Below are positions 33,184-34,250 of a DNA stretch of 64,000 bases, piece by piece (positions within the stretch are counted from its first letter, which is position 1; every line of letters begins with the position of its first letter). The translations under genes and the position numbers were made by a program. The DNA is from Escherichia phage REP4, in the sequence record OQ174503.1; one strand, given 5' to 3'. The notes beneath the pieces were generated by a model, which saw nothing but the letters and a program-made list of their open reading frames with translations, did no database searches and was not told the origin of the DNA.

Positions 33184-34044
33184 TTACACCGCCATCTTTC
33201 CTTTCAAGACACCATGGGACTGATAATCTTTGAGAACGAAATCTCGTGCTGTCATATATTCAGTTAACCAATACATTTGAGTTTCAGTATCGCATTGACT
33301 GAATCCATTAGGCCAATTAATACTAAGTTTGCATAGATCCATAGGAGTTCTATTTAATATCTCTTTGCATTGCTCAATATGGTTAGAATAAATGTGTGTA
33401 TTACCACCCGAGAATACCAAATCGCCCGGAACTAGTTCACACATGTCAGCAACAATATGTAAAAGAGCAGCATAACTCGCGATGTTAAATGGAAGACCGA
33501 GGAAAACATCTACCGAACGTTGATACCATTGTAGGTCAAGGTATCCGTTACGCACATTAAACTGATAGAACATATGACAAGGTGGTAATGCCATCTGCTT
33601 GAGTTCAGCTGGATTCCATGCCGACACAATTTGACGTCTATCATTGGGAAATGTTTTAATACGATTAACAACTTCTACAATTTGATCTACACCACCAAAA
33701 TCACGCCACTGTTTTCCGTAAATTGGACCAAGTTCACCGCTATGATAACCTAAGTCTTTGGCCTGGTTTTCGTAGTTTTCATCCCAAATTGTTTTTCCTG
33801 CAATTAAAGATCCATGAGTACGTTGACGTAAATCATTTACGTTAGTACTTCCTGATAAGAACCACAATAACTCAGAAATACATGCATTCCAGGCGAGCTT
33901 CTTAGTCGTTACTGCAGGAAAACCTTTAGTTAAATCCCAGCGTAATTTAGTACCGAACAAAGCAATTGTTCCTGTGCCTGTTCGGTCATCGGTTTCATAG
34001 CCATTTTCCAGAATATCTTTAATTAAAAATTGGTATTGTTTCAT
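33184..34044 (-). CDS. td: Thymidylate synthase (uninterrupted, no group I intron)
   Basis: Continuous ORF with catalytic PPCHMFYQF and folate-binding motifs; start taken at MKQYQ... (ATG 34044); the track ORF starts 4 codons earlier. Confidence 0.93.
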   Translation of the reverse strand: MKQYQFLIKDILENGYETDDRTGTGTIALFGTKLRWDLTKGFPAVTTKKLAWNACISELLWFLSGSTNVNDLRQRTHGSLIAGKTIWDENYENQAKDLGYHSGELGPIYGKQWRDFGGVDQIVEVVNRIKTFPNDRRQIVSAWNPAELKQMALPPCHMFYQFNVRNGYLDLQWYQRSVDVFLGLPFNIASYAALLHIVADMCELVPGDLVFSGGNTHIYSNHIEQCKEILNRTPMDLCKLSINWPNGFSQCDTETQMYWLTEYMTARDFVLKDYQSHGVLKGKMAV

Positions 34045-34250
34045 TAGTTCATCCAAGAATATGTAGAAGGATATTTGGCAAAGTTAGGTTTATATCCTAA
34101 TTTAACCATTTGTTTTGCTTTGCGAGTAAATCCTAAAGAACGCTCACCTTTAAGATACTGTTTTGGTGTCATAGGCCCTTGATGCATCTGCCGACAAATA
34201 AAAAGGGCCATAGCATTAGGAACATCCTTAACTTTTAATTTATTGCTCAT
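34044..34250 (-). CDS. Hypothetical basic protein (68 aa) inserted between frd and td
   Basis: ATGA overlap with frd stop and TAATG overlap with td start; [47 protein letters not shown]... Confidence 0.55.

Follow-up and report, generated by a model that had tools for sequence, protein, structure and literature searches.

A 68-Codon PHROG 9550 Gene in the Polymorphic frd-td Slot of T4-Like Phages

The genes for dihydrofolate reductase (frd) and thymidylate synthase (td) of Escherichia phage REP4 are separated by a 68-codon open reading frame (ORF) that, as judged from sequence comparisons, is a real and conserved phage gene. The slot that it occupies is a three-allele polymorphism in Tequatrovirus, and in other genera both of the genes that are found in this slot are present together. 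On balance, we favor the view that the ORF is a genuine accessory gene of the family PHROG 9550 that is dispensable, polymorphic in its slot, translated in a coupled manner and directed at the binding of a macromolecule, and that it is neither a remnant nor a mobile endonuclease. The gene itself is already known: it is catalogued as PHROG 9550, and well over 100 GenBank genomes annotate its product as hypothetical. The analysis covered a stretch of 64,000 nt (record OQ174503.1), which as a whole is referred to here as the window.

Results

The ORF consists of 68 codons and a stop codon, starts with ATG and is read from the minus strand, as is evident from both the sequence and the ORF list (Table 1). 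Its ATG (34250-34248) overlaps the TGA of frd (34249-34247) in the tetranucleotide ATGA, and its TAA (34046-34044) has one base in common with the ATG of td (34044-34042), giving TAATG. The upstream gene is annotated as frd in all of the matching records. The predicted protein of 7.9 kDa is strongly basic, with an isoelectric point of 10.26, 13 lysine and arginine residues versus two aspartate and glutamate residues, and a net charge of approximately +11. A first-pass annotation of the window had described a basic 68-aa protein at this location, overlapping the frd stop and the td start, and all of this was borne out, the translation being identical; the minus strand is our addition. No paralog of the ORF was found within the window.

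Table 1. Coordinates of features at and around the frd-td junction of the window
Feature	Position	Strand	Basis or remark
td, thymidylate synthase, 286 aa	33184..34044	minus	contiguous ORF; td in matching-record annotation
Putative exchanged module: ORF plus first ~55-60 nt of td	33985..34250	minus	identity comparison with JS10
TAATG, ORF stop and td start	34042..34046	minus	sequence
68-aa ORF (PHROG 9550 family)	34044..34250	minus	ORF list, sequence, PHROG match, tblastn, dN/dS
ATGA, frd stop and ORF start	34247..34250	minus	sequence, T4 alignment
frd, dihydrofolate reductase, 193 aa	34247..34828	minus	582 nt as T4 frd, 93.6% nucleotide identity
81-aa ORF, PHROG 3183	34828..35073	minus	stop overlaps frd ATG
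111-aa ORF, PHROG 3566	35082..35417	minus	ORF list, PHROG match

Several lines of evidence indicate that the reading frame is a gene. A search of PHROG profiles matched residues 1-68 of the protein to positions 1-68 of the 68-position profile PHROG 9550 (E=1.3e-45), and tblastn against 50,697 phage records gave 237 records with a match, 235 of which contain the frame at full length. At 95% identity or above there are ~134 records, from Tequatrovirus and from JS10-like phages including JS10 itself (Dhakavirus), with IME281, IME341 and MN04 probably among the JS10-like carriers. Approximately 30 records fall at 60-81% identity, namely Klebsiella phage Marfa and its relatives, Enterobacter phage CIP9 and Serratia phage 4S, and 72 tblastn matches to phAPEC8-like phages (Phapecoctavirus) fall at 40-43%. 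Homologs of 30-45% identity, in phAPEC8-like and metagenomic phages, lie away from td. The frame is therefore intact across at least five genera and down to 40% identity. The ratio of nonsynonymous to synonymous change (dN/dS, Nei-Gojobori) between the window and Marfa, CIP9 and 4S is 0.155, 0.230 and 0.081, respectively, and for the ORF overall ranges from 0.08 to 0.32; pairs more distant than these three are saturated at synonymous sites. A frame that arose by chance would not be full length in almost all matching records, nor would its dN/dS fall so far below 1. The first-pass annotation had named degeneration, with loss of the reading frame in related phages, as one outcome that would speak against its reading, and the opposite was found. 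In phAPEC8 the homolog is preceded by a canonical and strong Shine-Dalgarno sequence, AAGGAGG (-12.7 kcal/mol).

The window ORF is a member of PHROG 9550, together with the genes of EC121, pSs-1, fPS-65, Marfa, CIP9 and phAPEC8 (gp235), and shares with the family the same length and, in T4-like genomes, the same position. We see no difference between it and the family, which carries no assigned function, so that membership gives no mechanism. Searching 1.84 billion representative proteins with a profile, we recovered 11 clusters of stand-alone proteins of 70-96 aa, the one exception being a protein of 1402 aa (P0026, E=5.5e-9 to the family profile). We rejected this match as spurious; it runs through a repeated unit, VPxALGLHVCHQG, of a highly repetitive protein whose origin is probably eukaryotic or a misassembly. 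When a profile was run against 5.8 billion proteins, 40 matches of 42-108 aa were obtained, all of which are named hypothetical and none of which has a Pfam domain. Literature searches on td.1, PHROG 9550, DUF4858 and accessory-gene screens did not find the 68-aa gene.

In the T4 record, frd occupies 145109-145690 and td ends at 145112, confirming the direct overlap of the two genes, by 4 nt, from which the first-pass annotation had started. Pairwise alignment indicates that T4 lacks exactly 204 nt at the junction as a single indel, with AATGA at both edges. Description of the ORF as inserted is correct in that T4 lacks the ORF, whose place is precisely the junction, but it does not hold in so far as T4 is taken as the ancestral state, for the same gene adjoins td on its upstream side in Marfavirus, Kanagawavirus and a Serratia T4-like phage, where its divergence resembles that of td. 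The direct overlap in T4 could equally be the product of a deletion between the two AATGA repeats as of a gain elsewhere. We also considered these 5-bp repeats as a target-site duplication, an idea that was rejected because the ATG-plus-A contexts of the two overlaps largely force the repeat, which is thus no evidence for such an event.

Comparison of the junction across T-even phages, as proposed by the first-pass annotation, finds it empty, filled by the 68-aa ORF or filled by a gene of a second family, PHROG 1928, and in Tequatrovirus the site next to td, which that annotation had called a known hotspot for mobile insertion, is variable, with three alleles (empty, the 68-aa ORF and td.1 of T6). 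An empty slot with direct overlap is seen in T4 and in Dhakavirus VR5, and Mosigvirus-like phages align over the T4 junction in one piece. The 68-aa ORF fills the slot in the window and in about 135 Tequatrovirus and Dhakavirus records, and a PHROG 1928 gene does so in T6 and 365 records. Since most of the 568 records matching our junction query are occupied (about 135 plus 365), the T4 overlap is a minority allele, found in some 12% at most of the T-even-like records that matched, and about a quarter of T4-like coliphages have the 68-aa gene. The two families also occur side by side: Marfa and 4S carry a PHROG 1928 gene, then the 68-aa gene, then td, and in CIP9 a pair of PHROG 1928 genes precedes the 68-aa gene. 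Serratia phage CHI14 has such a pair but no 68-aa gene. In the slot of T4-like phages, every combination of presence and absence of the two families occurs. In Tequatrovirus, JS10, Marfavirus, Kanagawavirus and 4S the 68-aa gene is located directly upstream of td, with stop and start codons overlapping or abutting. Nucleotide identity to the window is 72.5% for the 68-aa gene and 70.2% for td in CIP9, and 66.7% and 71.1%, respectively, in 4S. Divergence so close to that of td fits a gene long established in the slot, not one newly inserted at a junction of the T4 type.

The commonest occupant of the slot in Tequatrovirus is td.1, which in T6 (AY262134; NC_054907, locus positions 1203..1550) encodes a hypothetical protein of 115 aa that belongs to PHROG 1928 and has no Pfam match. 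Genes of this family (115-126 aa) sit in the same slot as the 68-aa ORF, are absent from T4 and are co-resident with the ORF in Marfa, CIP9 and 4S. However, td.1 belongs to an unrelated sequence family, is flanked by noncoding spacers of 20 and 44 nt where the ORF overlaps its neighbors, and its family is the commoner of the two in the slot. PHROG 1928 genes are also present in one or two copies in T4-like genera beyond Tequatrovirus. The ORF does not belong to PHROG 1928: it matched PHROG 9550 only, the PHROG 1928 genes being separate neighbors of 111-126 aa. Genomes related to T4 carry variable accessory genes (Petrov et al. 2010, PMC2993671). Small nonessential prereplicative ORFs of T4 (frd.1-frd.3, nrdA.1 and nrdA.2) are likewise small, packed and codirectional with early and middle genes, and are also patchy among relatives and mostly of unknown function, although their sequences are unrelated to the 68-aa ORF. 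Between frd.1 and frd the window contains two more small ORFs on the minus strand (34828..35417; Table 1) where T4 has a 71-nt gap, and this accessory block upstream of frd is also seen in T6 and JK08.

Comparison of the window with JS10 gave a nucleotide identity of 97.6% for the ORF, 81.1% for frd and 75.0% for td. Identity collapses right upstream of the ATG of the ORF and stays high over at least the first 55 nt of td, falling about 55-100 nt into that gene; an N-terminal td variant, QFLIKDIL, is common to all of the ORF-carrying E. coli phages. VR5, which like JS10 is a Dhakavirus, lacks the ORF. Because the ORF of JS10 is so much closer to that of the window than are the flanks, the patch of ~270 nt indicates a probable recent gene-conversion or double-crossover exchange between Tequatrovirus and Dhakavirus. 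In JS10 (NC_012741, locus positions 2501..2707) the ORF has 98.5% amino acid identity to that of the window and is absent from the RefSeq annotation, and in IME339 it was called as a truncated protein of 42 aa. Two database labels could not be sustained: for the "DUF4858" of phage Shinka (MZ502379), Pfam-A hmmscan at E<=10 gives nothing, and the "flagellar biosynthesis protein" of PYPS2T is not reproduced by profile searches. The IME339, Shinka and PYPS2T calls and the JS10 omission all look like annotation artifacts.

The td gene is split by a group I intron with I-TevI in T4, T6 and JK08, and is uninterrupted in the window and in JS10. JK08, in which the ORF coexists with the I-TevI-containing td intron, led us to reject mutual exclusion of the two; given that the window and JS10 have the ORF and no intron, the intron neither bars the ORF nor is required for it. 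Free-standing homing genes of T-even phages (seg and mob) and I-TevI in td are likewise patchy within the nucleotide-metabolism cluster and spread laterally, but unlike them the ORF is too small and has no GIY-YIG or HNH motif. Elsewhere in the window, gene 32 (36524..37432) is next to gene 59 (37532..38185), with a gap at 37433..37531 and without the segG of T4, and nrdA (30362..32626) is followed by a 51-nt gap (30311..30361) and a 389-aa ORF, which is probably an uninterrupted nrdB, without mobE or nrdB.1. From ORF coordinates set against the T4 annotation, the window phage seems to have few homing endonucleases in this part of its genome.

Expression signals at the two junctions were weak. 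The 22 nt 5' of the ATG of the ORF are identical to those 5' of T4 td, and Shine-Dalgarno pairing is weak both at the ORF start (-3.5 kcal/mol) and at the td start of the window (GGA within TGGATGA, -3.1 kcal/mol). Together with the ATGA and TAATG overlaps, these are the sequence attributes of coupled gene pairs, in agreement with the earlier prediction that translation of the ORF is coupled at both ends. Within the ORF we found no sigma-70-like promoter, terminator or MotA box, Rfam gave only a sub-threshold chance match, and RNA folding was unexceptional (z-score -0.13). Inside frd, a MotA-box-like TGCTTGA is located on the coding (minus) strand at 34473..34479 and could be a middle-promoter element for downstream genes.

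In accordance with the first-pass annotation, the protein shows no sign of being a nuclease. Pfam and NCBIfam searches at E<=10 with the ORF and 20 relatives gave no match, nor did searches of PDB sequences, whether the query was the protein alone or other members of its family, and profile searches of the kind that had been suggested for the 68-aa protein matched PHROG 9550 only. By profile there is no catalytic domain or motif of the GIY-YIG, HNH, LAGLIDADG or His-Cys box classes, and with no nuclease-family match and all relatives small (42-108 aa) and stand-alone, a homing endonuclease identity was rejected. PADLOC also gave no match with 16 family members, a weak negative as its models mainly represent defense proteins, and the protein was not found to belong to a known defense or antidefense family. 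AlphaFold2, run with 21 aligned relatives, predicts a compact model with a mean pLDDT of 80.6, helices at residues 13-24, 29-39 and 43-50, and an aromatic C-terminal tail that packs back on the fold. The model matched no known fold, its only match in BFVD being the orthologue from a Klebsiella phage, and neither a profile nor a fold match to a helix-turn-helix was found.

The distant homologs, in phAPEC8 and eight metagenomic phage contigs, never adjoin td or a nucleotide-metabolism gene, and occur within long runs of small uncharacterized genes, all on one strand, close to replication or early genes. Outside the T4-like phages no conserved partner gene was found, the neighbors being in unrelated PHROGs or in none. 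In one metagenomic contig a Tad2-like (anti-Thoeris) gene (286..669, minus strand) lies ~4 kb from the homolog on the opposite strand, an association too weak to interpret.

Discussion

The 68-aa gene is considered dispensable because natural T4- and T6-type alleles exist without it. From the anatomy of the region, it would be transcribed within the prereplicative frd-td-nrdA message, and ribosomes that end frd would reinitiate on it at ATGA, by way of what in T4 is the td initiation region, and would pass from its end to td at TAATG. The gene appears to be without mobility machinery of its own and would be kept, lost and regained by ordinary homologous recombination in its conserved flanks, the 3' end of frd and the 5' end of td. 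Most tentatively of all, its product may bind a host or phage macromolecule, with nucleic acid or an acidic protein surface the likeliest targets, and might act as a modulator of the host-takeover or counterdefense type that is useful on some hosts only. We suggest a binding protein because the gene is absent from T4 and T6 and its product is small, highly positively charged and without catalytic motifs.

Location alone invites the idea that the ORF has a functional link with thymidylate synthase or the making of dNTPs, perhaps as a small regulator of Td or the dNTP-synthesizing complex or as an accessory subunit of either, given that it lies directly upstream of td from Tequatrovirus and JS10 to Marfavirus, Kanagawavirus and 4S and that the QFLIKDIL variant of td goes with it in E. 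coli phages. We regard such a tie as unlikely, and less likely than a dispensable early binding protein, since shared descent alone can explain synteny among T4-like phages, td is present but the ORF absent in T4, T6, VR5 and Mosigvirus-like phages, and the phAPEC8-like phages and eight metagenomic contigs carry the homolog away from td and nucleotide-metabolism genes. The patchy distribution and the near-identical copy within diverged JS10 flanks could also be read as the mark of passive cargo, copied into ORF-less genomes by coconversion after td or the frd-td junction is cleaved in trans by I-TevI or by a free-standing Seg or Mob endonuclease. The I-TevI cleavage site in td is ~0.5 kb away, JK08 combines the ORF with an I-TevI-bearing intron, and in T4 there is precedent in the trans-homing of mobE with I-TevIII (PMC2790892). 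Nevertheless, the window and JS10 lack the td intron, no nuclease gene is present in the frd-nrdA interval of the window, and the JS10 conversion patch of ~270 nt stops short of the I-TevI site. General recombination is highly active in T-even phages and suffices for the exchange, and we therefore hold cleavage-driven spread to be quite improbable.

Very short length, a weak Shine-Dalgarno sequence, a variable slot and the lack of a recognizable domain are what one might expect of the remnant of a larger gene, such as the DNA-binding domain of an endonuclease, or of a cis-acting spacer that relays ribosomes to td. This reading is largely refuted, and we give it hardly any weight: no longer homolog exists among the 1.84 billion representative proteins, the protein is conserved at 30-45% identity in unrelated phage groups that have no td downstream, dN/dS is 0.08-0.32, and the AlphaFold2 model is both confident and compact. 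Bolder, and in our opinion possible though doubtful, is the proposal that the ORF represents a new fold family of small basic proteins with a selectable activity, such as antidefense or the retargeting of a host nucleic-acid-binding machine, and that the near-identity between Tequatrovirus and Dhakavirus copies marks a recent selective sweep.

Our preferred reading, that of a dispensable accessory gene with a binding product, makes the 68-aa ORF an ordinary variable accessory gene and not a new type of element, and its importance is accordingly limited. Even so, the textbook frd/td overlap of T4 turns out to be the minority allele of a three-state slot, and the region offers a clean natural case in which T4-like genera have exchanged a gene module of 0.27 kb. 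The 68-aa protein is part of the "dark matter" of phages, having no homolog of known function and no fold match, and although nothing points to an unusual mechanism, knock-out of the gene on diverse hosts could reveal a new small effector.
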